Assembly (NCBI GenBank): GCA_902770045.1
Contig: CACXRO010000014.1
Location: 27,516-91,515 of the forward strand
DNA length: 64,000 bases
From: an uncultured bacterium
Lineage (GTDB): Bacteria; Verrucomicrobiota; Kiritimatiellia; RFP12; UBA1067
Direction: 5' to 3'
Positions 1,678 to 63,752 of this stretch are shown in pieces. A program made the position numbers and the translations under genes. Below the pieces are notes generated by a model. That model searched no databases. It was not told the DNA's origin and saw only the letters and a list, made by a program, of their open reading frames with translations. Positions within the stretch are counted from its first letter, which is position 1. Each line of letters starts with the position of its first letter.

Positions 1678-1686
1678 ATTATACCA
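1678..1686 (-). promoter_or_regulatory. extended -10 element TGGTATAAT (minus strand)
   Basis: Minus strand reads ggaataTGGTATAATACgcata. It lies 31 nt upstream of ATG 1646. Confidence 0.6.
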
Positions 1687-1832
1687 TATTCCGCCGCGCA
1701 AACTGCCGACATTTGCCATTTGCACGATTAATTCTGCCGCGCTATCGCAGGATGAAAAGGTTGACCGGGTTCGGGGGCATCGTCGCCAACGGCGTGTAGC
1801 CGTAGCGATGCGGAATCTGCCGACCCTTTTTA

Positions 1833-2657
1833 CTACCTCTTTGCGCCCTTCAGGACTTCGACGAGCGAATTCTGCAGGAGCTCGTTGTGTTCCGGCAAGG
1901 TGTCGCCTTCGACGATGCGACTGCATTTGTCGCAGATCCCGCACAGGTTTTCGTACAAAGCCGACTTCTCCTTTGCCGAAGCAAGTGACGCGGTCATTGC
2001 CGCGACGCGACTGGCTTCGTCCGCCGCCGCGGCAGTTTCCTGGCTGCAGATGCTGTTCGTCGCCGCCGCGATTTCCGCCGCGGCTTTGCACTCCACCACC
2101 TCTACATGCTTGTTCCAACCCCAAAGCCTGCCCTTCTCGAGGCGCTCGACCGAGACCTGGCACGGGAAGGCGTTGGTGGCCGCAAAGGCGCGGAGCCGGA
2201 CAATCTGATTGGTGCGATGGGCGTAGACGGTGGTGAGGATCAGAAGCTCCCGGTCAAGCTGCTTGATTTCCTTCTGCTGTCCCGAGAGCATCCTTTCGCA
2301 AACAGACTTCCGCTCCTTCCAGATGCGGCGCCAGCACTTTGCATAGCCTTTCGGGTCTTTCCGCCGCGCCTCGTCCGTCCACTCCCAGGGCAGAATCTCG
2401 TTGCCCTGCTCCTTGAGCCACGCATGGATCTCCGGCTCCAGCCCAACCTCGGCGTCCGACCAATTCGCAGCCGGCTTCACGAGCAGCCGCACGCAGCTCG
2501 CCCTTTGCGCCTCCTCGAGGAACTGCGCAAGCGTCTGGTGCTGCGTCTCCTCCGGCGGCCATAGGCGCACCACCACCCGATAGGCCAGCGCCAGCACGAC
2601 CACCACCAACAGTGCCGCGCCAAACATCCCCGCCAACTCCTTCGCCTCCTTTTTCAT
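1833..2657 (-). CDS. hypothetical membrane-anchored protein (one N-terminal TM helix, coiled-coil-like remainder)
   Basis: 274-aa ORF. The N-terminus is MKKEAKELAGMFGAALLVVVVLALAYRVVV. I recognise no family motif. A promoter motif abuts the ATG. Confidence 0.5.
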   Translation of the reverse strand: MKKEAKELAGMFGAALLVVVVLALAYRVVVRLWPPEETQHQTLAQFLEEAQRASCVRLLVKPAANWSDAEVGLEPEIHAWLKEQGNEILPWEWTDEARRKDPKGYAKCWRRIWKERKSVCERMLSGQQKEIKQLDRELLILTTVYAHRTNQIVRLRAFAATNAFPCQVSVERLEKGRLWGWNKHVEVVECKAAAEIAAATNSICSQETAAAADEASRVAAMTASLASAKEKSALYENLCGICDKCSRIVEGDTLPEHNELLQNSLVEVLKGAKR

Positions 2658-2664
2658 GCCCGGT

Positions 2665-2673
2665 ATTATACCA
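2665..2673 (-). promoter_or_regulatory. extended -10 TGGTATAAT, 7 nt from the ATG (leaderless configuration)
   Basis: Minus strand reads ttttTGGTATAATACCGGGCATG, with the ATG at 2657. Confidence 0.6.
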
Positions 2674-2792
2674 AAAATTCAGGTCTGCGGACGGAGATCT
2701 CGCGAAAACCGCCGGCCGCAGGCCTGTCCGGGCTCTCTCAGCCGGATACTGCCTAATGGCACACTAGTATACGGCGGGGAGTGGGAGAACTG

Positions 2793-2835
2793 ACAGGAAA
2801 GTGTTTGAGTTGAGAGGGTTTGAGTTGGGAGGCGG
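2793..2835. repeat. direct repeat copy A (GAGTTG/CAACTC-rich) flanking the hipBA module
   Basis: acaggaaagtgtttgagttgagag at 2793-2816 is identical to 4476-4499. The following ggtttgagttgggagg is similar to 4510-4524. Confidence 0.8.
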
Positions 2836-2841
2836 ATAACG

Positions 2842-4037
2842 CTATGCTTCCAGCCGGCGCGCGATCGCCTCGGCAAGTTCGCCGCGGACACCGGCCTCGG
2901 ACGCGAAACGCAGCCAGTCGCGGACGGCGCCCCTCACTTCGTCAAGGACTGCGCGCGCACGGCGCTCGCGCATGTTGGCGAACGTCGCCAAGGCGAGGAT
3001 GTCCGCTTCCTCAATGCCGGTGCGCCCCATTCGCCGCGCCTATCCATCAGGTACGCGATGTTCTTCACGTGGTCGTCGCAGTTCCACGCGAGGACGTTGA
3101 ACGCCATGCGGCGGAATAGCTGCTCGTCCGCCCGCGCGTCGTTCACCACCTGCCGCGTGACGCGAAACGCCTGCTCGTAGGAATATCCGGACGGGTCGTT
3201 GAAATCCATGTGCGCCATCGCCCCCAGCGTCTGCGCATGCAGCTTGCCGCCGTCCGGAAGCCGGTCGAACCGCCGCGTCATGAAGTGCCGTCCGTCCCAG
3301 AGACGGCATTCCGTCATCTCTATCCCGGCGGCACGGGCCATGAGATGGTAGGCATACTCGACGCGGCCATAGCCCCACTTGTCGTCGCCCTCCCTGTCGC
3401 CGTTGCCCGCGATTCCGTCGAACTTGACGAGCCAGTAGCCGAATCCTCCGGGAAGCGCAATCTGGCCGGAGCGCACTTCCCCCGTCGCCTCGTTCCAGCC
3501 GATGAGCGCCTTCGCCCTGGCGCCGCCGGCGGAAGATCCGACCCTGAGGATGGAGGCGTACCGCTTCATGTCGGGGACGAGCCTGGCGACGGACTCGGTC
3601 CGCACCCTGAGCACCTCGGCAGCCAGTTCGGCAAGGGCGTCGACATGGAGTTCCTCCGACTTGTCCTCGTCATCGAACAATGCCGGCCTGTACTCAAGCG
3701 CCCCCATCCCGCGAACGCCGGTGTAGCAAAGGCGTTCAATCGGCGTGAGGCTTTCCGGCAGCCGCCCCTGCGCCTTCAGCCACGCACCGATCACTGCGTT
3801 GCCGAACTTGTCCGGAAGCGAATCGGACAGCATTCCCGGGAGCCCGTGGAACGAGACCTGGGGAAGCGCGGCAAAAGAATACGTTCCGGCGCCTACGGGC
3901 ATCATCAACGGCGACGGCTCGATGCCCGCAACAATAAACTCCCGGTCATATGCAAACGACGCCCAGGAAGATCCCTCGGTCCTTGACACGACGCCAATGC
4001 GCCGTCCCCAAAGATAGACTTCCGCCGCTTCGTTCAT
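2842..4037 (-). pseudogene. hipA: HipA-family Ser/Thr kinase toxin, disrupted near 3013-3030 (internal deletion/frameshift)
   Basis: ORF 2934..4037 has the HipA N-terminal domain and the catalytic CDDHVKN motif. The expected W-x-LAPAYD segment is truncated to EWGAPA. The C-terminal tail (GRTGIEEADILALA...WLRFASEAGV...) continues in another frame as ORF 2842..3030. Confidence 0.65.
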
Positions 4038-4369
4038 TGGTCAGTCCCCCACACTTTGGCCGCCGCGCGCCTCCGCCGTGCGCGCTTCGGCAATGTTCGC
4101 TTTGCGAGGATGTCCTGCGGCGACAACTGCACCTCCGGAAGCAGCGACTCAAAACCATCCGTCAGCGACAACGCGCCACAAACGGCAAAGAAAACATCAA
4201 GCCGAAGTCCTCCAGCACCAGCCTCAAGCCGCTCAAGTGATCGCTTGGACACTCCAGCTCGCTGCGATAGCTCTGCCTGCGTTATGTTGCGAGCAAGCCT
4301 GACTTGCGCGAAACGCCTACCCGCCTCGCGTAAAGCCTCGTCCACAGTCATTGCCACATTGAATTTCAC
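4034..4369 (-). CDS. hipB: HipB-like XRE-family HTH antitoxin
   Basis: Contains ...LARNITQAELSQRAGVSKRSLERLEAG. There is a 4-nt overlap with the hipA start. The track start 4369 is a GTG. An in-frame ATG at 4351 (MTVDEAL) is an alternative start. Confidence 0.7.
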   Translation of the reverse strand: MKFNVAMTVDEALREAGRRFAQVRLARNITQAELSQRAGVSKRSLERLEAGAGGLRLDVFFAVCGALSLTDGFESLLPEVQLSPQDILAKRTLPKRARRRRAAAKVWGTDQ

Positions 4370-4388
4370 AATTCTACCTTTCTGGCGA

Positions 4389-4394
4389 ATTATA
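4389..4394 (-). promoter_or_regulatory. -10 hexamer TATAAT (no TG extension), proximal hipB promoter candidate
   Basis: Minus strand reads aaGGTATAATtcgcc, 19 nt upstream of GTG 4369. Confidence 0.4.
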
Positions 4395-4429
4395 CCTTAG
4401 TTACGCCTATTACTCGCCAACAACTGCGT

Positions 4430-4438
4430 ATTATACCA
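4430..4438 (-). promoter_or_regulatory. extended -10 TGGTATAAT, distal hipB promoter candidate
   Basis: Minus strand reads gggttgTGGTATAATACgcag. Confidence 0.5.
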
Positions 4439-4475
4439 CAACCCTCCGCAGTTGCGCAAGGGGCACGAGCCGGTC

Positions 4476-4525
4476 ACAGGAAAGTGTTTGAGTTGAGAGC
4501 GTTTTGGGGGTTGAGTTGGGGGAGT
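4476..4525. repeat. direct repeat copy B flanking the hipBA module
   Basis: See copy A. A 24-nt identical core is followed by a related gttgagttggggg stretch. Confidence 0.8.
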
Positions 4526-4545
4526 CAATGGTTTGAGTTGCGTTC

Positions 4546-5882: not shown

Positions 5883-5933
5883 CACCACTACATCGCCCTC
5901 CGCGTTTTCATATTTTTGCGTAGAATGGTGTGT

Positions 5934-5942
5934 ATTGTACCA
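5934..5942 (-). promoter_or_regulatory. extended -10 TGGTACAAT upstream of abiEi
   Basis: Minus strand reads ggtaggtaTGGTACAATACacac, about 51 nt upstream of ATG 5882. Confidence 0.45.
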
Positions 5943-6005
5943 TACCTACCCAATAAGTGTCAATCGGCGTCAGATTGGCGGGGATTGGACGTATATGAGC
6001 ATGGT

Positions 6006-7661: not shown

Positions 7662-7735
7662 CCGTCCGTATACAAGAACGTAGCGGGCGAGTGTCCGCTG
7701 CATTGGTTAACCAAAACAAAAAGGAAACAACAAAA

Positions 7736-10544: not shown

Positions 10545-10551
10545 ATGACGT

Positions 10552-10560
10552 ATTATACCA
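10552..10560 (-). promoter_or_regulatory. extended -10 TGGTATAAT, 7 nt from the kinase ATG (leaderless configuration)
   Basis: Minus strand reads aaaataTGGTATAATACGTCATATG, with the ATG at 10544. Confidence 0.6.
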
Positions 10561-10647
10561 TATTTTTGTCGCGGTCCACGACCGACTTTGGCGGCACGGG
10601 GACAGTCCCCACAAATCCGAGGGGTCTGTCCTATGTTCTCTGCCGCA

Positions 10648-12867
10648 CTAGAGCAGATGCACGGCGAAGCCGCTTACGGGCAGACGGGTGATCTTCAGGA
10701 ATCCGGCATTCGTGGCGTTGTCGTACTCGGCCTTCACCCAATCCGCCGACGCGACGCCGGAGCGGATGCGGATCTCGTCGATCTCGCCCTGGAAGTTGCC
10801 TGTGTCTCCCGGCTGCGCGTTGGTGAATCCGCCGAGCCCGAAGACCGTCCGCGAGGTGCTCAGCGTATCCAGCTGATGATAGTCGCTGCTGTCCTGGGGT
10901 ATGAGGACGCCGTCCAGGTAGGTCTTGGAAGACGTGCTTTGGTAGACGCCGGTCACGAACTGCCAGGTGTCCTTCTTGCAACGAGACTTCGCCTTCGTCT
11001 GCTCGTCGGTGTCGCCAGCCGCCGCCTTCTGGAACGGCAGGTACTTGGCCAGATCGCTGTTGTTTGTGTCACCCATCACAAAGCCCTGTTTCCAGTTGAA
11101 GAAGATATTGGCGGCTTGGTTGTTCGTGCCGCAGGTCCAGATGCGTCCGCTGCCGGAGGCGCAATCCCAGCGACTGGCCGGATATCGGCTCCAGCAGGAG
11201 ACGGAGAACGGCTGGGAGAAGACATAGCCCGCCCCCTGCGCCAGCAGCGGATAGTCGCCGTAGATGCCGGCCGCGGAACCCTGCGCGCCGGCGACAACCG
11301 TCGGAGCAGTCCCGACCGGCTTGGCGGGATAGTTCGTCGAGACCGAGTTGGCATAGCCGCCGATAGTCGAGTCGTAGCGGTCGAGGTGCCAGACGAACTT
11401 GTATCCAGCCGCCGTCCAGACGGCGGAAGCTGGCATCGGCGGCAGTACGGCCGACGGGTTCTTCTTGTGCCAACGCATCGTCACCACCGTGTCGCGCGAA
11501 AGGCGCGGGACGCTCACGTAGAGCACGGACTCGCCCACCTGGTTCCACGAGGCGACTTCGTGGAAGAGCTGCAAGTCGTCTGCGTCGAAGAAGCGGACGT
11601 CCGAGCCGTCCACCGCCGCGTCGGCGTATGAGAAGCCGTACTTGTTGCTCGCCGTCAGCTTCACCATCAGCGGGAAATTCGTCAGCACCACGCCCGCAGC
11701 GAGGTTGGTGGCCGCGATTGTGCAGCCCCTGCTTAGGCTGGAAGGCTGCGCCATCGGAACGACGAAGCCCGGCTGCAGAGTGGCGTATTCCGCGGCGACC
11801 CATTCGTCGGACGAAGCGACGTTGCGGATGCGGGCCTCGTCGATATAGCCGTTCAACGAATAACTGCCATCTGTGAAGCAACCGAGACCGATACCCTTTG
11901 TGGGCTTGTGGCTGGTATAATTGGCGGGGTTGCCGCCGGCGCTGCCGGTCAAGTTCACCCCGTCGGCGAAGATGAACGTCTTCTGGGTGCTGCCGCGGCC
12001 GAAGACAGCCGCAGCACAGACCCAGCCGGTGGATCCCGCAGGATTGGCCTTGTTGTGGTAGCTGTTGCCGCCCATGCAGTAGATGTCGTCGCTGCCAACC
12101 GAGATGTTGGCCATCTGGCTGTAGGTGGCCCCGGTGGTAATGATGCGGCTGTAGCTTGCCGTCTGCCGCGCGTTGACGATGGCGGAGAACACGAAGCCAG
12201 GGCCGTTGAGCGTCGTCGACGAGGTTACACCCGCCGGCACGAGAAAGCCGCCTTTTACGTAGTGTGCCTTCCCGGCTCCGCAGGCGATGTTCATCGCCGT
12301 GCCGGTGAGCGGCGTCGGATGCGCGGTGACGGTGGGAGCGTTGTTCGTTGGGACTGGATAGTTGGCGTCGTCCTCGTCTTGCTTGTAGGCGTGCCAGCCC
12401 TTCCCGGAGGCATCAGGGGTGTAGTGCTTGCCTTCACCATCCTCGAGGATCACGTTCATGTGCCAAACGGCGTAATAGCCGGCGCGGGACCAGACATTGG
12501 TCGAATCCGGAGAGACTGGCGCCTCCACCGAGTTGGCCGAACAGTGCATTGTGATCGTCGCAGTCGTGGAGAGCGACGGCACGGAAACCCAGACGAGAGA
12601 CTCGCCGGTCGTGTCCCAGGTATCGACGTCGAAGGGAAGCGTTTCGTCGTTCCTGTCGGTGAACCAGAGGCAGCTGGCAGTCGGACATTCCGCATAGGAG
12701 AAGCCGTCCAGCGCGGCCGGGGAGATGCGCACGAGCACCGGGAAGTTCTCAAGCTCGGTCGATGATGCGCTGGGGAACGATAGTTCGCATTTGTATTCCG
12801 CGAGCGCGCCCAGCGCGACGGCGGCACAAACAACACCACACGCAAGTTTCTTGACCATGTTCATCAT
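10648..12867 (-). CDS. secreted 2x(DUF2341 + LamG/concanavalin-like) protein
   Basis: The true start MMNMVKKLACGVVCAAVALGALA (ATG 12867) is preceded by AGGAGGaaaa. ELENFPVLVRISPAALDGFSY... and VLTNFPLMVKLTASNKYGFSY... match the DUF2341 pattern. The track ORF start 12996 is an extension. Confidence 0.6.
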   Translation of the reverse strand: MMNMVKKLACGVVCAAVALGALAEYKCELSFPSASSTELENFPVLVRISPAALDGFSYAECPTASCLWFTDRNDETLPFDVDTWDTTGESLVWVSVPSLSTTATITMHCSANSVEAPVSPDSTNVWSRAGYYAVWHMNVILEDGEGKHYTPDASGKGWHAYKQDEDDANYPVPTNNAPTVTAHPTPLTGTAMNIACGAGKAHYVKGGFLVPAGVTSSTTLNGPGFVFSAIVNARQTASYSRIITTGATYSQMANISVGSDDIYCMGGNSYHNKANPAGSTGWVCAAAVFGRGSTQKTFIFADGVNLTGSAGGNPANYTSHKPTKGIGLGCFTDGSYSLNGYIDEARIRNVASSDEWVAAEYATLQPGFVVPMAQPSSLSRGCTIAATNLAAGVVLTNFPLMVKLTASNKYGFSYADAAVDGSDVRFFDADDLQLFHEVASWNQVGESVLYVSVPRLSRDTVVTMRWHKKNPSAVLPPMPASAVWTAAGYKFVWHLDRYDSTIGGYANSVSTNYPAKPVGTAPTVVAGAQGSAAGIYGDYPLLAQGAGYVFSQPFSVSCWSRYPASRWDCASGSGRIWTCGTNNQAANIFFNWKQGFVMGDTNNSDLAKYLPFQKAAAGDTDEQTKAKSRCKKDTWQFVTGVYQSTSSKTYLDGVLIPQDSSDYHQLDTLSTSRTVFGLGGFTNAQPGDTGNFQGEIDEIRIRSGVASADWVKAEYDNATNAGFLKITRLPVSGFAVHLL

Positions 12868-13072
12868 TTTTCCTCCTGATAAATTTAGATGCCGACTACC
12901 GACAGCGCTAGCGCTGGCAGCGCCAAAGCCGCGCAGATTGAGAACACCGGCCTGCGAGTTTCCATGATTCAACCCTCCTTGGGTTTGACTGCGCATATTC
13001 TAACAAACCGCGCAGAAAATCGCAATGGTCAAGCGCTCATTTTGCGCAGAAATATTCGCTCATAATGCGAAA

Positions 13073-16210: not shown

Positions 16211-17359
16211 TCAGCGCTGCCACACCGGCGAGATGAAGTTGCCGCTCGCGCCGAAGAGCTGGCGGGGCTTGTCGCCGTCCTTGAGCGTGTCGATTATGAA
16301 CAGCGCCTTGTCGCGGCTGGCGACGAGGTGGCGCATGTCGCGCGACCAGGACGGGTGCTCCCAGTTGCCCTCGGGGGTGACGAGCTCCGCCGAAACGTCG
16401 CCCTCGGCCGGGCTCATCACGGCGATCTGCGCGCCGCCGCGCTTGGTGATGTAGGCGATGCGGCCGTCGGGGCCCCAGTCGGGGTCGACGTTCTCGCGCC
16501 CCTTGGAGGTCAGCCGTCGCTTCGCCTTCGTCGCGACGTCGACGACGAAGATCTGCGGGTTGCGGGCCTCGTTGGAGACGTAGGCGATCTTCTTGCCGTC
16601 CGGGCTCCACGCTGGCTGGCCCTCGCTCGCGAGCGGGGTGTTGGTGAGCCGGACGAAGCGGTCGCCGGAGATGACGTAGAGCTCGGGGTTGCCGTGCACG
16701 GTGAGGATCGCCGCGACCTTGGTGCCGTCGGGCGAGACCGCGATCCCGTCCGGCGAGCCCTTGAGGCTCCACTTCTGGCGGCGCGTGCCGGTGGCGGTGT
16801 CGAGCTCCCACACCTGCGGCGAGCCCTTGAGGTCGCTGATGTACATCACCGAGTCGCGGTCCTTCCAGCGCTGGAAGATCGTCATGCGCCCGTCGCCGGT
16901 GAGCTGCTTCACGTCGTAGCCGTCGGGGTAGCTGACGCACATCTCGCTCGGCCGCACCTGGCCGCGGCCGGCGGACTTGCCGCGGTTGAGGAAGAGCACC
17001 CGGTCGAGCGCGAAGCCCTTCTGGTTGCCGAACGCCTCGCACATCGCGTCGGCGAAGCGGCGCGCGGCCATGCGGGCGGACTTGTCGTCGGAGAACGCCT
17101 CGGCCGAAGAGACCACCTTGCCGCGGCCCTCGGCCTTCATCGCGCCGGACGCCCCGCTCACCTTGATCGTGCCGTCGCCGCGGACGGTGAAGAGCCCCGA
17201 GATCTCGAGGTTCTTCGCCAGGCACTTCGAGTACGCGCCGTTGGCGACCTGGATCGACACCGTGAACTTCTGGGCGCCGACGCCGGAGATGTTGACGACC
17301 GTCTCCGCCGACGCGGCGAGAGCAAGGGCCATTGCGGCCAGGGAGATAATTCTTTTCAT
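16211..17359 (-). CDS. TolB-like periplasmic beta-propeller protein (PD40 repeats)
   Basis: The signal peptide is MKRIISLAAMALALAASAE. Repeated SPDG/WSPDG motifs occur. The track ORF (to 17623) is an artefactual extension through the heptamer array. Confidence 0.7.
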   Translation of the reverse strand: MKRIISLAAMALALAASAETVVNISGVGAQKFTVSIQVANGAYSKCLAKNLEISGLFTVRGDGTIKVSGASGAMKAEGRGKVVSSAEAFSDDKSARMAARRFADAMCEAFGNQKGFALDRVLFLNRGKSAGRGQVRPSEMCVSYPDGYDVKQLTGDGRMTIFQRWKDRDSVMYISDLKGSPQVWELDTATGTRRQKWSLKGSPDGIAVSPDGTKVAAILTVHGNPELYVISGDRFVRLTNTPLASEGQPAWSPDGKKIAYVSNEARNPQIFVVDVATKAKRRLTSKGRENVDPDWGPDGRIAYITKRGGAQIAVMSPAEGDVSAELVTPEGNWEHPSWSRDMRHLVASRDKALFIIDTLKDGDKPRQLFGASGNFISPVWQR

Positions 17360-17366
17360 GATGCGT

Positions 17367-17375
17367 ATTATACCA
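17367..17375 (-). promoter_or_regulatory. extended -10 TGGTATAAT, 7 nt from the ATG (leaderless configuration)
   Basis: Minus strand reads gcgaataTGGTATAATACGCATCATG, with the ATG at 17359. Confidence 0.6.
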
Positions 17376-17382
17376 TATTCGC

Positions 17383-17462
17383 GGTTCGTGGTTCGTGGTT
17401 CGTGGTTCGTGGTTCGTGGGTCGTGGGTCGTGGTTCGTGGTTCGTGGTTCGTGGTTCGTGGG
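17383..17462. repeat. heptanucleotide tandem array, 11 units of GGTTCGT (minus-sense ACGAACC), two of them GGGTCGT variants
   Basis: Counted unit by unit from 17383 to 17459, plus a partial unit. The array fills the gap between stop codon 17463-17465 and the promoter motif. Confidence 0.95.
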
Positions 17463-20400
17463 TTAGGGGAGGACCTGGCCGTCGGCGACGAGGCGGCGGC
17501 GGAGATCCGCGTAGGGGACGTCCTGCACCGCGACGCCCTTCTCGACCGCGACCGCCGCGGCGGTGCCGGCGGCCTGGCCGAGCGCGAAGAACACCGGCTC
17601 CATCCGGATCGACCCGAACGCAACGTGGCTCGCCGAAAGGCTCACGGGGACGAGCAGGTTCGTGCATTCGCCGCGCTTGGGGACGATTGCCCCGTAGTCG
17701 ATTCCATACGGCACCATCGCGCCCTTAAGCCCGGCGCCGCGCGAGTCCTCGAAGTTGCCCTCGTTTCGCACGAAGCCGTCCGCGGTCTCGACCCGGCGCA
17801 CGTGGTGGGAGTCCATCGTGTAGGCGGCCATCGCCACGGGACGGGAAACCGTCTTCTCGCCGCGGCAGTGGCTCTCCGTCATCACCGTCTCGCCCACCAT
17901 GCGCCGGCCCTCGCGGACGTAGAGCTGGCTCTGCCAGCCGTCGCCTGGTCCGTCCGTGAACTCGTCGCGGCACGTTCCCCACTTGGAGAAATACTCCCTC
18001 ACGCGCTTTGGAATCCGCTTATGGTTCGCAAGCGTCCACATGAGCCCGCGCTGGTAGTCGAGATGCGCCTTGAAGATCTCCTCGCGCCGCGCGTAAGACG
18101 CCTCCGGCCATTCGTGGTTCATGCCGATGAAGTCGCTCGAGAAGGCGGTGCGGTTGTTGGAGTCGGTCTTGCCGTCGGGCATGCGCGACATGATGAGCGG
18201 CACGAAGTCCCTGCCGCTTCTCCATGGCCGCGTACTCGCGGAAGAGCAGCTCGTACGCGCGCTCGTCGTAGCCTTCCGGACGCTTGAACGGGATGCGGTT
18301 CTCGGGGACGTCCGTAAGGCACATCCGGAAGCAGTACGCCTGCATGCGCCCATCGCCGTCGCCTGGCTTTTCCGCGGCGTTGTACGGCTCCACCCCGGGG
18401 AGCAGACCAGAGCTCCGGTCGCCCTCGACGACATACGGCGAGACTCCGGCGTGGAAGTTGTGGTGCCGCGAGCCGCAGGCGTCCGGCGCAATGCCGTTCA
18501 GCGTCTCGCCGTAGACGGAGTTGGCCTCGCGCCCGACGGCGTACTTCACTCCGGCGGCAGCCATCAGGTCGCCTTCGTAGGTTGCGTCGACGAACATTCT
18601 GCCGCGGTAGGTGCGCCCGGAGAGCGTGGTGACGGCGACGATGCTCGCGCCGCGCTTCTCCACTCCCCTTTCGCGGTCAAGCCGCTCTCCGCGGCGGATG
18701 TCGAGGCCGTCGCGTTTCTCCCAGCCCTCGAGGATCGCAAGCGCCGCGGAAGGCTCGAACGTCCACATCGAGCCGCCGGACTTGGAGCCGGCGCACTGTC
18801 CGTCGGGGAAATAATCCTCGGACTTCTGCCACTTCCAGTGCGAGGGGTCGGAGTACCACTTCGCGACATCGCGGTAGAACTCGAGGGCGATGCCGCCGAA
18901 AGCGGACTTGTTGCCGATGTCCGTCTGGCCGAGGCCGCCGGTGGTGAGTCCGCCGATGCGCGTCTCGGGCGAGACGACCACCGCCTTGAGCCCCATGCGT
19001 TTCGCCTGCACCGCGGCGGAAATCGCCGCCGGACTGCTTCCGTAGACCACCAGGTCGAAATCCTCCTCCGACGGCCAGCGCAGCAGGTCGGCCTCGCCGA
19101 CCGGAATGTCTTCGGGCAGCGCGCCCCAGTCGGCGACGCCGTCTCCGCAGAGGACGTCCACACTGCCCTTCGCCGCGGCGGCCACCCACTCCGGCGGCGG
19201 CGCGGCGAAGCGGCAGCCGAGGTAGAGCGCCTCGCCGGCGACGTCCTTCACGGCCTTGCGCGTGCGAGCGAAGTACTCGCCGAGCAGATAGTCGGTGAGC
19301 CCGCAGAGCTCCTGCTCCGAAAGCTGGTCGGGACCCTTCGCCGCGTCGTACTTCCGTCCGTCCGCGGCAAGCCGCTTCAGGAGCGCGCGCCGGGCGGGCT
19401 GGTCGGCCGGCGCGGCGAGCGCGCGCCTCGCGAGCTCGGCGTGGGTCGCGCCGAAGTCGACGTCGCGGTCGACGACGAGTCCGAGGCACCAGGGGCTGTG
19501 CGGCAGCGGACGGCGTCCGGCGAAGTCCCAGGTGACGCACTGCCCGAAGGTCGGGTCGAACGGGTCGCGCATCGCGCGCGGCGACTTCCAGAGCGGGCGC
19601 GACTCGGCGTTCACGTAGGCGACAAACGGGGTGGGGCGCGCCGGCGCGGCGGGGCAGGGGCGGGCGGACGAGGCGAGGTCGCGGAAGAGGCGGCCGTCGG
19701 GGTCGACGATCCACCAGGAGCCGCCGCGGCGCTCGACGCGGAAGCGCCCGGTCGCCGCGAGCTGCGGTCCCCGCAGCTGGCCGCCCCACTGGTCGATTCC
19801 GGCGGCCTCGTCGGTGCGGGCGCCGCGCCGCAGCGTCCACGAAGGCTGGTTCACGCCGTAGCCGCAGCCGTGGCCGACGCCCTGGGAATAGCGCAACTTC
19901 ACCGGTCCGCGGAGGTTGCGGAAGAGGATCATCTGTCCCGACGGCGGACAGACGTAGTCGGCGAGGCCGAAGTTGACGTTGACCGGGCAGGTGACGCGCA
20001 TCGCGAGGTTGACACCGTCCACATAGGCGAGCTCCGGCGTCCAGAGCGGAAACCAGCCGCCGATCCTGCCTAGGACCGGATGTCCGGCGAGGTCGCACAT
20101 CCAGGCGAAGTCGGGCGAGCAGCGCGAGACGTCAGGATCCAGCGCGGCGAGCGCGATCGAGCGGTAGCCGCCCATCGAACCGCCGCCGACGGTGAGCGTG
20201 CGTCCGTCCCACTGCTCCAGGGTCTTGGCGTAGGCGACCGCCCGGACGTCGCGCAGCAGCATGAGGAACAACTCGTTGGAGGTCTTCGCGCCGGTGTTGC
20301 GCCAGCAGTAGCCCTGCATCACGTTGGTCCAGAGGTTCTCGTGGTAGGCGGAGTCGGCGAGCGGGTCTTCGCCGTAGCGGGTGATGTGGAGGCGGATCGC

Positions 20401-29870: not shown

Positions 29871-29878
29871 TGGCGTGT

Positions 29879-29887
29879 ATTATACCA
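29879..29887 (-). promoter_or_regulatory. extended -10 TGGTATAAT, 8 nt from the ATG (leaderless configuration)
   Basis: Minus strand reads agaataTGGTATAATACACGCCAATG, with the ATG at 29870. Confidence 0.6.
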
Positions 29888-29891
29888 TATT

Positions 29892-29919
29892 CTTCGTGGT
29901 TCGTGGCTCGTGATTCGTC
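29892..29919. repeat. heptanucleotide tandem array, 4 units of NTTCGTG (minus-sense CACGAAN)
   Basis: Units are cttcgtg gttcgtg gctcgtg attcgtc. The last unit overlaps the dprA stop codon. Confidence 0.8.
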
Positions 29920-30988
29920 ACCGCGGCAGGGCGATGCGGTTGCCGGGCAGGAAGCGGACGAAGCCCTTGAGCCGGAGCTCCATCGCGAGCGAGTTCACCT
30001 TGCGCGGGGGAAGGCCGGTTTTCGCGACCAGCTCGTCCACCGACACCCCGACGGCGTCCACGTGCAGCATGACGAGCGACTCCTCCACCGTGTAGGGCGG
30101 CGTTTCCGGGTCGCGAACTGGGGCAGATTCCTCCTTTGCCGGCTTCCGCGGCGAAAGCGGCGAAAGCACTTCGATGATGTCGTCGGCGTTGCGCACCAGG
30201 GTGGCGCCGTTGCGGATAAGGTCGAGGCAGCCGGCGGACATGTGGCTGTCGACCTGCCCCGGCACCGCCATCACCGGGCGGCCAAGGTCGCCGGCGATGC
30301 CGGTGGTGATCAGCGTGCCGGACTTCTGCGGGCACTCCACCGCCACCACGCCCTGCGCGAGCGCGGCGACGACATGGTTGCGGATCGGGAAGGTCTGCTC
30401 GTCGGCGGGGCGGCCGAACGGGAACTGGCTCGCCACCGCGCCGCCCTTGGACGCAATCTCGCGCGCGAGGTCGCGGTTGCGCTCGGGATAGAAGCGGTCG
30501 AGGCCGGAGCCGATCACGCCGACCGTAAGCCCCCTTGCGTCCAGCGCGCCGCGGTGACCGTCGGCGTCGATGCCGAGGGCGAGTCCGGAGACGACGCACC
30601 AGCCGGCGGAGGCGAGGTCGGCGGCGAGGCGGTGGGCGACGACGTGTCCGTATGGAGTGGCGCGGCGGGTGCCGACGATCGCCACCATCGGCTTCGAGAG
30701 CGCGGCGACGTCGCCCTTCACGTAGAGCGCGAGCGGCGCGCCGGGGACGCCGCGGAGCCGAGCGGGGTAGCCTTCGTCGGCCGGGGTGACGATCTTCACG
30801 CCGTAGCGCTTCGCGAGTTCCTCCTCGGCGGCGACGTCCACCTCGCCGCCGGTGCGCGAGACCTTCTCGGGATACGCCTCCCAGGCGGCGGCGACGCTGC
30901 CGCCGGCGGCCTCCGCCAGGCGCTCGAGCTTAGCCGGGCCGATGCGGTCGGTCAGGTTGAAGGCTATGTATGCTTGACGGTCTGACAT
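29918..30988 (-). CDS. dprA: DNA processing protein DprA/Smf
   Basis: Contains ...VAIVGTRRATPYG...VVSGLALGIDADGHRGAL...GVIGSGLDRFYP. Confidence 0.85.
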   Translation of the reverse strand: MSDRQAYIAFNLTDRIGPAKLERLAEAAGGSVAAAWEAYPEKVSRTGGEVDVAAEEELAKRYGVKIVTPADEGYPARLRGVPGAPLALYVKGDVAALSKPMVAIVGTRRATPYGHVVAHRLAADLASAGWCVVSGLALGIDADGHRGALDARGLTVGVIGSGLDRFYPERNRDLAREIASKGGAVASQFPFGRPADEQTFPIRNHVVAALAQGVVAVECPQKSGTLITTGIAGDLGRPVMAVPGQVDSHMSAGCLDLIRNGATLVRNADDIIEVLSPLSPRKPAKEESAPVRDPETPPYTVEESLVMLHVDAVGVSVDELVAKTGLPPRKVNSLAMELRLKGFVRFLPGNRIALPR

Positions 30989-31003
30989 CGGTTTTGGTAT
31001 ACT
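30974..31003 (+). promoter_or_regulatory. sigma70-type promoter for tRNA-Glu: TTGACG-N18-(TGG)TATACT
   Basis: -35 at 30974-30979. Extended -10 at 30995-31003. It lies 17 nt before the tRNA 5' end and inside the first codons of dprA on the other strand. Confidence 0.55.
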
Positions 31004-31020
31004 ACGCGCCGTTTTTCCGC

Positions 31021-31095
31021 GGCCCCATCGTCTATCGGCTAGGACACGAGCTTTTCATGCTCGTTAGAGGAGTTCGACTCTCCTTGGGGCTGCCA
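31021..31095 (+). tRNA. tRNA-Glu (anticodon TTC), CCA encoded
   Basis: Hand-folded. Acceptor stem GGCCCCA/TGGGGCT. D arm GTCT-ATCGGCTA-GGAC. Anticodon arm CGAGC-TTTTCAT-GCTCG. T arm AGGAG-TTCGACT-CTCCT. Discriminator G plus CCA. Confidence 0.9.
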
Positions 31096-35365: not shown

Positions 35366-35394
35366 CTGTCTGCCAACCTTTCGATAACTGGCGT

Positions 35395-35403
35395 ATTATA
35401 CCA
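35395..35403 (-). promoter_or_regulatory. extended -10 TGGTATAAT upstream of asd (29-nt leader with GAAAGG)
   Basis: Minus strand reads ggatttttGGTATAATACgcc. The element starts 12 nt after the lptF/G stop codon. Confidence 0.55.
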
Positions 35404-35411
35404 AAAATCCG

Positions 35412-39761: not shown

Positions 39762-39805
39762 TTGTCCGCCCAGCCTTTCATTTGGAATGTCGAAATCGGG
39801 TGTGT

Positions 39806-39814
39806 ATTATACCA
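39806..39814 (-). promoter_or_regulatory. extended -10 TGGTATAAT upstream of carB (44-nt leader with GAAAGG)
   Basis: Minus strand reads ggaaataTGGTATAATACacacc. Confidence 0.55.
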
Positions 39815-39824
39815 TATTTCCCCA

Positions 39825-39887
39825 CTGGCTGCTGACCACTGGTTGTTGGCTACTGGCTGCTGGTTACTGGTTGCTGGCTGCTGGTTA
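39825..39887. repeat. heptanucleotide tandem array, 9 units of CTGGYTR (minus-sense CAGCCAG/TAACCAG)
   Basis: Units are ctggctg ctgacca ctggttg ttggcta ctggctg ctggtta ctggttg ctggctg ctggtta. Confidence 0.9.
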
Positions 39888-45000: not shown

Positions 45001-45153
45001 GGCCTGCGCCGCGGCGTTCGTCGCGACGGCGACCGCGGCGGGATGCTCCGCCGCGTATTTCGCGCGCTCCTTGGCGCGGCCGAACTCGCCCCACACGTAC
45101 CACGCGAGAGCCGCGCCCAGCAGCAGACAGATTATCTTTTCGCTCTTGTTCAT
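42052..45153 (-). CDS. yidC: YidC membrane insertase fused in frame to a DUF4091/GH123-like domain that has its own signal-peptide-like segment
   Basis: The start MNKSEKIICLLLG is ATG 45153, with GGAGGaactgaag upstream. The YidC core reads ...NYGVAIILLTILVRLLFWPL...PMLIQIPVFIALF.... Then comes ...IRRQTAKERAAAAPAVEVIDPPSTRQ-MRRHGAVVLALALASLALGASA (internal ATG 43440) with no stop codon. The 462-aa C-terminal part contains ...YYLDLWQHPWAVARIAG... Confidence 0.7.
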   Translation of the reverse strand: MNKSEKIICLLLGAALAWYVWGEFGRAKERAKYAAEHPAAVAVATNAAAQAEAARTEPAAGEATKSPAVVESAPAKPSVPEKVVVLENEELKLELSSWGAVVKKATLKKYAKDRGEISDENPPVVFDFSDSPLGAGAVVEAFEVAEEGADSVRFVNGAKSRTIRLGADYRITLDDDGIGGAVSLGQMRMGDSKNDLLSVDSCAMDAGKGKPGVVHHCEGDSPLKGYLVGGLSGGCSGSKSAAGMPAETSVKYPGAQQWVAVKNRFFVTAFCSSTAANAGFDATVSRDIGSASYRPASVSASVMLADAAAKRTSVFYVGPKKQSLLWDLGMKDVMEFGMWRWICYPLVWVLNLFYGWIPNYGVAIILLTILVRLLFWPLTHKSTVGMKKMQELQPKMKEIQAKYKDNPQRMQQETWALYRAEKVNPASSCLPMLIQIPVFIALFNVLRSAVELRYAPFLWIADLSEPEGLFASWFPFGGLNLLPILMAVSTGLQSAFTPSTGDKNQQRMMMVFMPLMMLVMFYSFPSALSLYWFLSNLFSIVQMWIIRRQTAKERAAAAPAVEVIDPPSTRQMRRHGAVVLALALASLALGASARTFELRAWRGETVAARLPDSCELGVAPAPLAVKVGVMHPVKYAAEPGSLQLREAYDCVEWGGEGAGPRVVEVTVPADAKPGVYRCGMMEVKVLDRVLPPPKEWKYYLDLWQHPWAVARIAGVRPFSKEHYEAMRPVWELLATAGQKTLTVTLLDEPWDHQCRDAYHSMVEGGFALFDEYVEFGRSCGLGPDISCYTLCPWKLREKPGTPEFEARWAPFIQRFAAHLKEKGWYDDTIIAMDEREPDQVKAVVDFVHRHAPGLRIAMAGNRKPSDFKGIDIDVYSQILSHVTPEFLSECDGRREKGFKTTYYVCCWPVKPNTFMESAGEEPFWLGAYPAFAGMDGFLRWAWNSWPEDPLADAGYGDWRAGDTFLAYPGGVPSWRFLELRNGIVAAEKARILRGSDAAGFAKAAAAFDLKKALDGKAEWWRVRRQVLDFVNAE

Positions 45154-45155
45154 CT

Positions 45156-45389
45156 TCAGTTCCTCCAACGTCCCTTCGGCGGCACCGGGTCGGGGCCCTT
45201 CGCCCCGAACGGATGGCACCTCAAAATCCTCCAGAGCCCCAGCAGCGTCCCCTTCGCCGCGCCGTGCACCTGCAGCGCCTCGAGCATGTAGTTCGAGCAG
45301 CTGGGCGTGAACCGGCAGCAGTCGCCGAAGAGCGGACTAAGCGTCACCTGGTACGCCCTCACAAAAAGCTGCAATGTCCTGGACAACAT
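45156..45389 (-). CDS. yidD: membrane protein insertion efficiency factor YidD
   Basis: Contains ...AYQVTLSPLFGDCCRFTPSCSNYMLEALQVHG. Confidence 0.85.
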   Translation of the reverse strand: MLSRTLQLFVRAYQVTLSPLFGDCCRFTPSCSNYMLEALQVHGAAKGTLLGLWRILRCHPFGAKGPDPVPPKGRWRN

Positions 45390-45823: not shown

Positions 45824-45856
45824 TTTCTTGATTCCTTTCAGTTGAAAAGTTTGTGT

Positions 45857-45865
45857 ATTTTACCA
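45857..45865 (-). promoter_or_regulatory. extended -10 TGGTAAAAT upstream of rpmH (33-nt leader with AAAGGAA)
   Basis: Minus strand reads ggtaaataTGGTAAAATACacaa. It overlaps the end of the upstream gene. Confidence 0.5.
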
Positions 45866-45868
45866 TAT

Positions 45869-46681
45869 TTACCCCGCGCCGCGCAAGCGCGGCAGGAGCC
45901 GTGCAAGCCGCGTGTCGGTGGCGATGAACTCCTCCGCCGACATCGCGCGGAAGCGCTCTGGCGTGAAGGAGTTGTGGAGCATGATGAGCCCTGCCGTGCG
46001 CGCGAGGACGTCGTCGACCTCGCCCGGCTCGAACCAGTACTTCTGGTAGGCGGCCACGGCGTCGAGCCCGGTCGCCATCAGCTCCTCCTCCGGCACCGCG
46101 AAGATCGCGTCTTTGTCGATCCAGGCGTAGTCCTTTGGGTCCGCCGTCGCCGCGAGCGGGTCGATGATCGCGTTGACGCAGTAGTTCCAGCGGCGGATGA
46201 GCTTCCACTCGCCGCGGCGGAGGAGACGAAGGAGGAAGTTGGAGCGGAAGCGCTCCGCCTTTGCGACGCGCGGCTTGAGCTCGCGGTGCCAGTCGCAGAG
46301 GAACTTCGCCTCCGGCTTCGTCGCGTTGATGTAGGCGGCGTAGTGGACGAGCCCGCCGTCCTGGCGGCGCGCGACGATGGTGCAGTCCGCCGCCGAAAAC
46401 CTCTCGTCGAGCGGCTTCGTGAGCACCGAGTCGGCGTCCAGCCAGACGCCGCCGTGCTTCTTGAGGACGGCGCAGCGGATGCAGTCGGACTGCATCGCGA
46501 GCGTCATCTTGCGGCAGAGCACCTCGCGCTGCTCCGCCTCGGTCAGCCAGTCGCCGAGCGTCTCGTAGTCGAGGACGGTCGTCTCGTACCCGGGCAGACG
46601 GTCCTTCCACGTCTCCATGCAGAGGCGCACGTACCCCGGCACCCTCTCCTTCGGCTCCCAGAAAGTGAATACCCTTTTCAT
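45869..46681 (-). CDS. capsular-polysaccharide-synthesis-type (GT32-like) glycosyltransferase
   Basis: MKRVFTFWEP...MQSDCIRCAVLKKHGGVWLDADS contains a DxD-like motif. Confidence 0.45.
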   Translation of the reverse strand: MKRVFTFWEPKERVPGYVRLCMETWKDRLPGYETTVLDYETLGDWLTEAEQREVLCRKMTLAMQSDCIRCAVLKKHGGVWLDADSVLTKPLDERFSAADCTIVARRQDGGLVHYAAYINATKPEAKFLCDWHRELKPRVAKAERFRSNFLLRLLRRGEWKLIRRWNYCVNAIIDPLAATADPKDYAWIDKDAIFAVPEEELMATGLDAVAAYQKYWFEPGEVDDVLARTAGLIMLHNSFTPERFRAMSAEEFIATDTRLARLLPRLRGAG

Positions 46682-51587: not shown

Positions 51588-51612
51588 TTGGAATCCTCCT
51601 TTGTTTTCGGGA

Positions 51613-51621
51613 ATTATACCA
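51613..51621 (-). promoter_or_regulatory. extended -10 TGGTATAAT upstream of the hexokinase gene (25-nt leader with AGGAGG)
   Basis: Minus strand reads ggtatttTGGTATAATtcccg. Confidence 0.55.
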
Positions 51622-51653
51622 AAATACCTCTGTCCAAGGCAACAGCGTCCGGA

Positions 51654-54651: not shown

Positions 54652-54758
54652 GTCGAGTTGTTCCTTTCCCATCTCAGCCAGATGGTCGGCTTCGGCGGTC
54701 ATCTGGCGCTTGTTCAGTGTAGTCTATCATACTCCCCCAGCCGGGTCAATAGAGGTAG

Positions 54759-56921: not shown

Positions 56922-56959
56922 CTCTATCCCCTTTTCGCTTCTTCAGACTGTTGACGCGT

Positions 56960-56989
56960 ATGATACCAAAACCGCCCCCCAGATGTCAA
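56960..56989 (-). promoter_or_regulatory. near-consensus sigma70 promoter TTGACA-N18-(TGG)TATCAT for pilC
   Basis: On the minus strand, -35 is at 56989-56984 and the extended -10 at 56968-56960. A 38-nt leader contains AAGGGGA. Confidence 0.6.
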
Positions 56990-60100: not shown

Positions 60101-60925
60101 GGTTCGCGGTGCCGAACTCGGCCTTCGCGGTGCCTCCGTTCCCGTACATCACGCAGTTGACCACCCTGGCGTCAGCCGAGTAGATGCAGACGCCGGCACC
60201 GGGATAGGCTGGATCGGTGGTGTTGTCGGCAATGGTGGAGTTGGACATCACCGCCCTGCCGTCAAGGCAGACGCCGCCGCCGTAGGTAATCGTCGCGCTG
60301 CCGTTGCCGTAGATGAGGCAGCTGTCCACCACGGCGTCGCCAGTGGCGTAGACGCCGCCGCCGTAGCTGCGCCGGGAGTCAACGTCGGAGGACTGCTTCC
60401 ACACAATTGCCTGGCCGGCGGTAATCTTCGAACGTGTCAGCCTGCCGCCGGACATGTAGACGTTCCCGCCCGAACCACGCCCCCAGCCTCCACTCGCCGA
60501 TCTGGCGCCGCGCCCGCCGGTGATGACGCAGTTGTCGACGACACCCGCCGACATGTTGACATGACCGCCGCAGAAGTTGTTGTTGGCGCTACCGTTTAGT
60601 CCATATCCGCGTATTGTTAACGAGCTCAAGCCGGCATACTGATGACTGATGGAAAACGCACGCGAGCCAGACGTTTTCTCACTGGAGTTGTCGGTAATCG
60701 AAACGTCCTTGGGGTCGCCGGTCTCGCCAACCACCAAAATCGGCGTGGAGAGGGCATAGCCGGAGCCAGTGTAGCTGCCGGCTGCCATCACGATCTTCGC
60801 CGCCCAGTTCGACGCGTTGGCGCAGGCGATCGCATCCGCGAGCGTTGCCGCGCCGGTTTCGCGGGTGGCGTAGGGCTCGACGTGATCCGCCGCGGACGGG
60901 TTCACGTACATCGTCTGGTAGACGA
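57108..60925. repeat. three tandem intragenic repeats of about 1.35 kb (about 60925-59595, 59594-58241, 58240-57108)
   Basis: 58721-58800 versus 60071-60150 gives 74/80 identical nt by my count. The third copy is more diverged and lacks the PKD part. Confidence 0.85.
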
Positions 60926-62591: not shown

Positions 62592-62652
62592 TTGGCACCT
62601 CCAGTTGAATTTCGAGTATGCGAACGACGGGGGAAGATTTCTAAGAGGTTTG

Positions 62653-62666
62653 CCCCCCCCCCCCCC
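62653..62666. repeat. homopolymer C14 (G14 on the sense strand) in the leader of the giant gene
   Basis: Plus strand reads tg-cccccccccccccc-gcaa. It lies between the -10 at 62712-62720 and ATG 62591. Confidence 0.95.
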
Positions 62667-62711
62667 GCAAAATTTTAGCAGTTATGCTGATTCGCCGCTT
62701 CATTAATGCGA

Positions 62712-62720
62712 ATATTACCA
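62712..62720 (-). promoter_or_regulatory. extended -10 TGGTAATAT upstream of the giant gene (about 115-120-nt leader)
   Basis: Minus strand reads cgggataTGGTAATATtcgc. Confidence 0.45.
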
Positions 62721-62761
62721 TATCCCGCCAAGTCTGTCAACTGCCGCGGCACGGCGTATCG

Positions 62762-63736
62762 TCAGCGGCGGCGGGCGCGGCAGATGACGACGTCGTCGGC
62801 GACGGCGATGGTCTTCTCGCCGTCGACCTCGGCGAAGTCGGCGCTGGCGATGCACATGTAGCGCGGGTCGGCGCGGCCCTCGGAATGGTGCGCATGGAAG
62901 ACGATCCTGAGCCGCCCCTCGCGGTCGCGGAAGAACGAGTGGTGGCCGGTGCCGGACAGCCCCGCCTTGCGGAGCAGGATCGGGTTGGAGGCGTTCTTGG
63001 CGTAGGGTCCGGTGACCGACTTCGAGGTGGCGCAGCCGACGGCGTAGAGCGGGCTGCGGTAGTCGTTGGCGGACCAGGTGATGTAGTAGAGCCCGCCGTG
63101 CTTCAGCAGGAACGGTCCCTCGTTCACCCGCCCGAAGCCGCGCTTCTCCCATTCCCCGCGCGCGTCGAAGAGGAAAACCGGCTCCGCCCCCTTCTTGACC
63201 GCGGTCATGTCCTTCTCCATCTCGACGATGCGCGGACCAGATCCGTAGCCCGGTGCTCCGCCGGCGACATAGAGCATCCAGACGCGTCCGTCGTCGTCGG
63301 TGAAGAAAGAGTTGTCGATCGTGAAGCGGTCGTCCTCGAAAAGCGTGCGCTTCTCCGCCTGCCTGAACGGTCCGAGCGGCGAGTCGGCGACGGCGACGCA
63401 CACGCGCTCCTGGGCGGAGTACGCCATCACGTACCTGCCGTCGGCGCGGCGGTAGACCTCGGGCGCCCAGAACCAGCGCTCGCCCCAGACGTCGTCCTTG
63501 TGGAGCGCAAGCCCCTTCTTCGCCACGCCGACGCCGATGGTCCAGTCGACGAGGTTGGTGGAGACCGCGACCGGTATCCCGTCCGCGGCGCCGGTGCCGT
63601 AGGCGTAGTAGACGCCGCCGTCGAGGAGGACGAACGGGTCGGCGAGGTAGAGCCTGCCGTCGCCGCCGGCGTCGCCCGCGGCAAAGGCGGCGAAGGAGGC
63701 GAAAGCAAGAATCACGAATGCGAATGTCTTTCTCAT
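62762..63736 (-). CDS. glycoside hydrolase family 43 (beta-xylosidase/arabinofuranosidase-like)
   Basis: The true start is MRKTFAFVILAFASFAAFAAG (ATG 63736). It contains ...LADPFVL..., ...WAPEV... and ...NEGPFLLKHGGLYYITWS... Confidence 0.75.
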   Translation of the reverse strand: MRKTFAFVILAFASFAAFAAGDAGGDGRLYLADPFVLLDGGVYYAYGTGAADGIPVAVSTNLVDWTIGVGVAKKGLALHKDDVWGERWFWAPEVYRRADGRYVMAYSAQERVCVAVADSPLGPFRQAEKRTLFEDDRFTIDNSFFTDDDGRVWMLYVAGGAPGYGSGPRIVEMEKDMTAVKKGAEPVFLFDARGEWEKRGFGRVNEGPFLLKHGGLYYITWSANDYRSPLYAVGCATSKSVTGPYAKNASNPILLRKAGLSGTGHHSFFRDREGRLRIVFHAHHSEGRADPRYMCIASADFAEVDGEKTIAVADDVVICRARRR

Positions 63737-63743
63737 GGCAAGT

Positions 63744-63752
63744 ATTATACCA
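63744..63752 (-). promoter_or_regulatory. extended -10 TGGTATAAT, 7 nt from the ATG (leaderless configuration)
   Basis: Minus strand reads atgaataTGGTATAATACTTGCCATG, with the ATG at 63736. Confidence 0.6.

Follow-up and report, generated by a model that had tools for sequence, protein, structure and literature searches.

A 20-nt element built around an extended -10 box is very probably the core promoter read by the single housekeeping sigma-70 factor (RpoD) of a gut/rumen bacterium of the class Kiritimatiellia, as judged from the way its copies are distributed. We analyzed the element in a 64-kb stretch of DNA (hereafter the window, G000:C14:27516-91515) and in the metagenome-assembled genome (MAG) to which this stretch belongs, G000, a gut/rumen Kiritimatiellia MAG of 2.27 Mb in 87 contigs, with 64.7% GC and 85% complete. 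A first-pass annotation of the window had taken the element for a housekeeping promoter. Its genome-wide position, orientation and spacing to start codons fit that proposal, and so do the genes that it heads, among them the rpmH-rnpA-yidC operon, carB, asd (where its position is conserved in the family), hexokinase and tRNA-Glu. Housekeeping as well as accessory genes are driven by it in the window, and the enolase gene is likewise headed by the box.

At the genome level, TGGTATAATAC occurs 195 times and is thus within the 25 commonest 11-mers, the others being GC repeats. The shorter TGGTATAAT is found 298 times and TATAAT 540 times, the latter as compared to 107-252 occurrences for other AT-only hexamers. 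Upstream of all 539 TATAAT hexamers considered without TG preselection, T occupies position -15 in 79% and G position -14 in 77%; 387 of the 540 genomic TATAAT fit TGnTATAAT. A 20-nt matrix was then built iteratively, with consensus gAAWTWTGG-TATAAT-ACrC and an information content of about 24 bits. At a threshold of at least 14 bits it matches 649 sites in the genome and 56 in the reversed, non-complemented genome. In these matches, G is present at -13 in 68%, position -16 is A in 56%, T in 36% and G in 7%, and the A/T tract reaches -20. Positions beyond -9 to +10 carry almost no information, and therefore the element is not a long repeat.

The position of the matches was tested by using our own codon-usage gene caller, which called 1696 genes covering 84% of the sequence. 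The element is not as frequent inside genes as between them: coding cores occupy 82% of the genome, and 619 of the 649 matches fall outside them. Among these 619 intergenic matches, 392 are exactly TATAAT and the others are one-off variants. As all AT-only hexamers avoid coding sequence in this genome, such avoidance was dropped as evidence, and orientation, spacing and the reversed-sequence control were used instead. The next gene is co-directional for 528 matches. Of 753 candidate operon-first genes, 375 (50%) have a copy upstream, in contrast to 39 of 849 operon-internal genes (5%), so that the element marks roughly half of the transcription units.

Within the window, the 14 minus-strand sites listed in the first-pass annotation, each given as the T of TGG located 3 nt 5′ of the -10 hexamer, were all found at their coordinates, as was a TG-less copy at 4394, given as the hexamer start (Table 1). 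TGGTATAATAC is present nine times, always in the minus strand, whereas 0.00 copies are expected from 100 shuffles; for GGTATAAT and TATAAT, 12 copies each compare with 0.11 and 1.25 expected, respectively. The strand bias arises because nearly all genes of the window are in the minus strand. Distances of 7-120 nt from hexamer to start codon agree with those previously noted, that of rpmH being 33 nt. It was also correct that no listed copy lies within a gene body, yet several of the -35 regions overlap the 3′ end of the preceding gene. A separate TGGTATAAT copy at 11913-11921 of the plus strand is antisense within a 782-aa gene and has a matrix score below 8 bits. Weak mirror matches at 39813-39818 and 51620-51625 (plus strand) lie opposite true promoters; such shadow matches appear because the motif contains the partial palindrome GTAT-A-ATAC.

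Hexamer-to-start distances are bimodal, with 173 sites at 5-10 nt and 128 at 21-45 nt. In the short class, 24 sites are at 6 nt, 53 at 7, 56 at 8 and 29 at 9, hence with modes at 7 and 8; distances of 5-10 nt account for 28% of the observed sites and for 4% in a shifted-position control. A Shine-Dalgarno-like core precedes none of the 173 short-distance genes, as opposed to 176 of 291 leadered genes. In the short class, C is the commonest base at -1 (80/173), A (of ATG) is at +1 and the second codon specifies lysine in 62 of 173; within the TGGTATAAT subset, ATG serves as the start codon at 97 of 103 short-distance sites. These features lead us to predict that the mRNAs of the short-distance class, about a third of the assignable copies, are leaderless. 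The class represents 173 of about 753 candidate operon starts (23%) and 173 of 464 assignable motif promoters (37%), crude gene calls underlying both figures. Five such units, with the ATG 7-8 nt past the hexamer, are present in the window (Table 1), and in three of them a signal-peptide or membrane-anchor N-terminus begins exactly at the ATG predicted to be leaderless. The spacing of 7 nt had been noted before and stands; its main functional consequence, leaderless mRNA, had not been drawn.

Two of these units also illustrate a difficulty of gene annotation. The longest open reading frames at 16211-17623 and 62762-63775 (minus strand) extend upstream through their own promoters, the predicted true starts being 17359 and 63736, and the former frame also crosses an array of heptamers. 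As the frames run through their promoters, callers that choose the longest open reading frame would mis-annotate both genes.

When present, the -35 element is preferentially separated from the hexamer by 18 bp. A match to TTGACA of at least 5/6 at a spacer of 16-18 bp was found at 90 of 619 sites (15%) and at 1.4% in the control; the remaining 85% of sites are devoid of it. Its presence varies with the quality of the hexamer, a good -35 being found at 5.6% of the perfect TATAAT boxes as compared to 30% of the imperfect ones (Fisher p = 5e-16). It is likewise found at 5.8% of the promoters classed as leaderless and at 21.6% of leadered ones. The window follows the same pattern, since every good -35 pairs with an imperfect hexamer (62717 TAATAT, 56965 TATCAT, 5939 TACAAT, 54726 TAGACT and TATACT of tRNA-Glu), and at TATAAT or TAAAAT sites the -35 match never exceeds 4/6. 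It had been stated that only the pilC and tRNA-Glu promoters have a good -35. This has to be corrected, as the -35 is perfect at the sites 62720 (TTGACA, 17 bp) and 5942 (TTGACA, 18 bp), and a promoter absent from the earlier list (hexamer 54726-54721) has TTGACC at 17 bp. A further TTGACC, near position 13002, was considered and discarded, as it lies 24 bp from TAGAAT. The sequence data thus argue for a -35 box that is compensatory rather than absent, dispensable and subject to a trade-off against the quality of the -10.

We next considered the sigma factor. A single RpoD-type sigma is encoded in the genome (G000:C7, 712 aa), being closest to those of MAGs that carry the labels Kiritimatiellae or Verrucomicrobia and come from the gut of sheep, goat, horse and human. 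Its regions 2.3/2.4 (YATWWIRQAATRAIADQ), 3.0 (RIPVHMIETINK) and 4.2 (TRERIRQIEAKALRKL) are canonical, and it has E. coli-type residues both where TG is read (VHMIE) and where the -35 is read (TRERIRQIE). The residues of region 3.0 that read TG are H455 and E458 in E. coli numbering. A comparison of regions 2.4 and 3.0 with other bacteria had been suggested: in all relatives compared, region 3.0 (RIPVHMIETINK) is the same as in E. coli. An altered sigma as the origin of the sharp consensus was rejected, as motif-rich relatives do not differ from motif-poor ones in regions 2.3/2.4, 3.0 and 4.2. Therefore, the sigma can read TG as well as -35, and the -35-poor design is a property of the promoters. 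The previous suggestion of a sigma factor relying on extended -10 rather than -35 contacts is accordingly kept in part: 85% of the copies have no recognizable -35, but this is not attributable to a modified sigma.

Outside these contact regions, the E, Q or P that follows MGQV in sigma region 1.2 seemed to track the fraction of promoters with AC after the box when 11 species were compared, but no longer did so with 20 (in G188 the residue is E and the AC fraction 7%, in G185 P and 53%, in G190 Q and 48%). The sigma finger (region 3.2) reads SKVGDNDDAxYGDFIPD in TGGTATAAT-rich genera and SPVGDGDDAxFGDFIED in G129, a member of a different genus of the family, as well as in two further families of the order (RpoD loci L001, L082-L084 and L122-L141 compared). 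In this alignment the finger substitutions appear to separate TGGTATAAT-rich from TGGTATAAT-poor genera; as this is effectively one phylogenetic event and is confounded, we regard it as a lead only. With respect to other factors linked to RNA polymerase, a stand-alone CarD was not found in G000, where the CarD domain is present only in Mfd (G000:C17); Actinobacteria and Deinococcus-Thermus, rich in leaderless mRNAs and poor in -35 elements, have CarD. One DksA/TraR zinc-finger protein is present (G000:C10:19702-19809). A search for the RelA_SpoT domain of guanosine tetraphosphate (ppGpp) synthetases gave no match in G000 and none in 54 of 59 class genomes that are at least 90% complete; since it is missing class-wide, its lack cannot explain a genus-level trait.

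Taking these data together, sigma region 3.0 would read T-15 G-14, aided by the T/A-rich tract from -20 to -16, and region 2 would read and melt TATAAT. The binding energy of this extended -10 would be sufficient to render the -35 dispensable in vivo, and a -35 is found mainly at imperfect hexamers. Transcription would start 7-9 nt past the hexamer, a position supported indirectly by the spacing to the ATG and by the bases preferred at -1 (C) and +1 (A). In about a third of the assignable copies the start would coincide with the A of ATG, giving a leaderless mRNA that would be translated without a Shine-Dalgarno sequence; the other copies would give short leaders of 20-45 nt with a GGAGG-type site.

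To establish how widely the element is distributed, we counted TGGTATAAT in related genomes. It occurs 69-435 times per genome in 30 other sampled species of the genus, with 0-27 occurrences (both strands) of the reversed control, and 88-128 times in two sister genera. In G129 it occurs three times, near the control, and in most of the 120 class genomes it is near control level as well. Richness in TGGTATAAT is hence confined to a few genera within one family. The orthologous asd promoter lies 23-60 nt before the ATG in nearly all of the 24 family loci compared (outliers at 11 and 105 nt). It is of the type TTGCnn-17-TATGAT in the distant clade and of the type TTTTGG-TATAAT in the near clade, while its flanks diverge. 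The asd promoter provides a phylogenetic footprint of function, with sharpening of the consensus in place.

The discriminator has a narrower distribution. AC follows the TGGTATAAT box in 65% of copies in G000 and its near-twin G184, and in 48-53% in G190, G185 and G011, about 6% being expected by chance; the range is 5-30% for the remaining species of the genus and 2-25% for sister genera. In the RpoD tree, the high-AC species correspond to one subclade plus, separately, G011. A survey of 49 species published in 2025 (PMC12641261) reports that Terrabacteria have conserved discriminators, rich in AG or AT, and that those of Gracilicutes vary, a pattern ascribed there to control of the growth rate through ppGpp. 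For a Gracilicutes species with no detectable ppGpp synthetase, a fixed C-rich discriminator is then a mild anomaly. According to a speculative idea to which we give a rather low probability, the near-fixed A-C-r-C of the subclade G000/G184/G190/G185 and of G011 would mean that RNA polymerase, or an unknown factor bound to it, has recently co-evolved with nearly all promoters. Such a change could have been permitted by the class-wide lack of ppGpp synthetase, and it may be linked to the sigma-finger substitutions of the TGGTATAAT-rich genera.

Several observations weigh against the assignment of the element as the housekeeping promoter. Thirty of the 649 matches lie inside called coding cores, and for 68 matches the next gene is not co-directional. 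About half of the candidate operon starts lack a strong copy, and therefore other promoter forms exist. The gene caller is crude, so that percentages are approximate. Finally, 229 of the 649 copies (35%) have an up- or downstream flank recurring beside another copy, many of these flanks being small intergenic repeats or heptamer arrays; copying, and not selection, could hence account for some of the uniformity. We considered in this respect that the element is spread as dispersed repeats or portable promoter cassettes rather than being selected independently at each gene. The heptamer arrays described below, which keep a fixed register with the box at 35 promoters, also favor such an origin. 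Nevertheless, the 420 copies (65%) with unique flanks still have AC in 58%, information is about zero outside the 20-nt core, and many of the recurring flanks are small intergenic repeats at variable distance from the box. The orthologous asd promoter, moreover, keeps its box in many genera despite unrelated flanks. Copying contributes without explaining the motif, and as the source of its uniformity it appears improbable.

Two further readings were judged to be less probable still. As G(-13)TATAATAC(-5) forms a 4+1+4 palindrome and weak shadow matches are present in the opposite strand, the box could serve not as a promoter but as an operator bound by a dimeric protein, or as a site of methylation. 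A symmetric site would lack a preferred orientation, yet 528 copies face genes as against 68 that do not; symmetry is also broken by the conserved AAWTWTG extension; the fixed spacing of 6-9 nt to the ATG and the compensation by the -35 are properties of promoters; and sister genera lack the AC that completes the palindrome while TGGTATAAT stays abundant. We consequently give almost no credit to the operator or methylation site. Recognition by an alternative sigma is just as hard to sustain: nothing direct favors it, apart from the second RpoD-like paralogue that some relatives have, and against it stand the finding of only one RpoD-type sigma in G000, a consensus that is the canonical sigma-70 TGnTATAAT, and the presence of the box at rpmH-rnpA-yidC, carB, asd, tRNA-Glu, hexokinase and enolase. 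The core promoter of the housekeeping sigma hence remains the reading that we favor.

The promoters of the window and the units that they head are shown in Table 1.

Table 1. Promoters of the window, with coordinates in window positions; distances run from the hexamer to the start codon.
Unit headed	Promoter	Strand	-35 and spacer	-10 hexamer	Sequence around the hexamer	Start codon, distance	Remarks
GH43 protein with signal peptide (MRKTFAFVILAFA...)	63739..63758	-		63749-63744	TGAATATGG-TATAAT-ACTT	ATG 63736, 7 nt	predicted leaderless
1827-aa PKD-domain protein	62707..62740	-	TTGACA (62740-62735), 17 bp	62717-62712	GGGATATGG-TAATAT	ATG 62591, 120-nt leader	
pilC (T2SSF)	56955..56989	-	TTGACA (56989-56984), 18 bp	56965-56960	TTTTGG-TATCAT-ACGC	ATG 56921, 38 nt	
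	54716..54749	-	TTGACC (54749-54744), 17 bp	54726-54721	TATGA-TAGACT-ACAC	ATG 54702, 18 nt	absent from the earlier list
hexokinase	51608..51627	-		51618-51613	TATTTTGG-TATAAT-TCCC	ATG 51587, 25 nt	AAGGAGG Shine-Dalgarno in leader
rpmH (45823-45686)-rnpA-yidC operon	45852..45871	-		45862-45857	AAATATGG-TAAAAT-ACAC	ATG 45823, 33 nt	
carB	39801..39820	-		39811-39806	AAATATGG-TATAAT-ACAC	ATG 39761, 44 nt	preceded by heptamer array 39825-39887
asd	35390..35409	-		35400-35395	ATTTTTGG-TATAAT-ACGC	ATG 35365, 29 nt	position conserved in family orthologues
tRNA-Glu (31021-31095)	30974..31008	+	TTGACG (30974-30979), 18 bp	starts at 30998	TTTTGG-TATACT-ACGC		
ABC ATPase heading about 10 closely spaced genes to 18019	29874..29893	-		29884-29879	GAATATGG-TATAAT-ACAC	ATG 29870, 8 nt	predicted leaderless
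PD40 beta-propeller protein with signal peptide	17362..17381	-		17372-17367	GAATATGG-TATAAT-ACGC	ATG 17359, 7 nt	predicted leaderless; 11 CACGAAC heptamers abut (17383-17462)
Ser/Thr protein kinase	10547..10566	-		10557-10552	AAATATGG-TATAAT-ACGT	ATG 10544, 7 nt	predicted leaderless
181-aa gene and AbiEii toxin gene	5929..5963	-	TTGACA (5963-5958), 18 bp	5939-5934	GGTATGG-TACAAT-ACAC	GTG 5888, 45 nt	
hipB-like HTH/hipA	4384..4444	-		4435-4430; 4394-4389 (TG-less); 4376-4371	GTTGTGG-TATAAT-ACGC; AGG-TATAAT-TCGC; TAGAAT	GTG 4369	stacked -10 boxes
274-aa membrane protein, no Pfam match	2660..2679	-		2670-2665	ATTTTTGG-TATAAT-ACCG	ATG 2657, 7 nt	predicted leaderless
MatE transporter	1673..1692	-		1683-1678	GAATATGG-TATAAT-ACGC	ATG 1646, 31 nt	

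Some of these units deserve a comment. In the leader, of about 120 nt, that precedes the gene for the 1827-aa PKD-domain surface protein there is a run of 14 G (62653-62666, minus strand), which might act as a slipped-strand switch or be a tract prone to assembly errors. Downstream of rpmH and rnpA, a single frame of 1055 aa (42052-45219, minus strand) encodes YidC, with its periplasmic and 60KD_IMP domains, followed at the C-terminus by a GH123 glycoside-hydrolase catalytic domain. The first two -10 boxes of hipB/hipA share the repeat GGTATAAT(A/T)CGC.

Tandem arrays of heptamers (CACGAAC, CCAGCAG/CCAGTAA) directly adjoin the promoter box at 17383-17462, 29890-29915 and 39825-39887 (minus strand). 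CACGAAC units begin at -11, -18/-19, -25/-26 and -32/-33 from the hexamer, that is, in a fixed register, and at least two units are present at 35 promoters genome-wide. When Tandem Repeats Finder (TRF) arrays of this family lie within 60 nt upstream of a promoter, all of them (20/20) are co-oriented with it. The idea that these arrays mark promoters of secreted proteins was rejected, as the downstream genes are functionally diverse. Further families of period 7/8 occur in intergenic DNA (TTGAAAGG, AACCACCT and ACACAGAG).

From a practical point of view, the box would provide a simple and specific rule to locate promoters, operon boundaries and true start codons in gut/rumen Kiritimatiellia MAGs, where standard callers over-extend 5′ ends because open frames there are long and GC-rich. 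It would also supply ready-made strong promoter parts, predicted to be independent of a -35, for a group without genetic tools. A lineage of the Planctomycetes-Verrucomicrobia-Chlamydiae (PVC) superphylum would thereby join the bacteria predicted to use leaderless mRNAs at large scale, and the data suggest that a promoter consensus can sharpen at the level of the genus, and even below it, without any change in the sigma residues known to contact DNA.

When compared with known systems, what we describe is a known promoter design in a little-studied lineage: an unusually sharp extended -10, mostly without -35. As in the extended -10 (TGn) promoters of E. coli sigma-70 and the TRTG "-16 region" promoters of Firmicutes, TG stands one base 5′ of TATAAT, the -35 is dispensable and compensatory (here, as deduced from sequence), and the TG-reading residues of region 3.0 are conserved. 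Unlike in those bacteria, where it is a minority class, the extended -10 is here the majority form. Its consensus is also sharper, with about 24 bits over 20 nt and G at -13 in 68%, an A/T tract to -20, an ACrC discriminator in the G000 species and a preferred spacer of 18 bp. The purine at -16 of the Firmicutes TRTG is replaced here by TWTG (A 56%, T 36%, G 7%).

A literature search for the motif string and for work on leaderless mRNAs or promoters in Kiritimatiellia or Verrucomicrobia yielded nothing specific beyond one study, in which Cappable-seq of mouse gut samples showed that 10% of the mapped start sites of Akkermansia muciniphila coincide with annotated start codons (PMC4782308). Like our organism, A. 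muciniphila is a gut bacterium of the PVC superphylum with leaderless starts, measured there and predicted here; it belongs to another class, no near-invariant extended -10 consensus was reported for it, and the predicted leaderless share is higher here.

A close parallel is found in the genomes assigned by GeneMarkS-2 to group C (Actinobacteria, Deinococcus-Thermus), which are characterized by a Pribnow box 6-8 nt before starts (PMC6028130) and by a share of about 25-50% of operons being leaderless. Kiritimatiellia G000 differs from them in belonging to the PVC group of the Gracilicutes, in having a full TATAAT with TGG instead of a loose TANNNT, in showing CarD only as part of Mfd and not as a stand-alone protein, and in that the trait is limited to few genera of one family. 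As in Mycobacterium tuberculosis or Deinococcus deserti, operon-first genes devoid of a Shine-Dalgarno sequence have their ATG 6-9 nt past a Pribnow box. As in group C, leadered genes do have such a sequence (176/291, operon-internal genes not being scored separately). Crude gene calls would put the share of transcription units concerned in G000 at about a quarter to a third.

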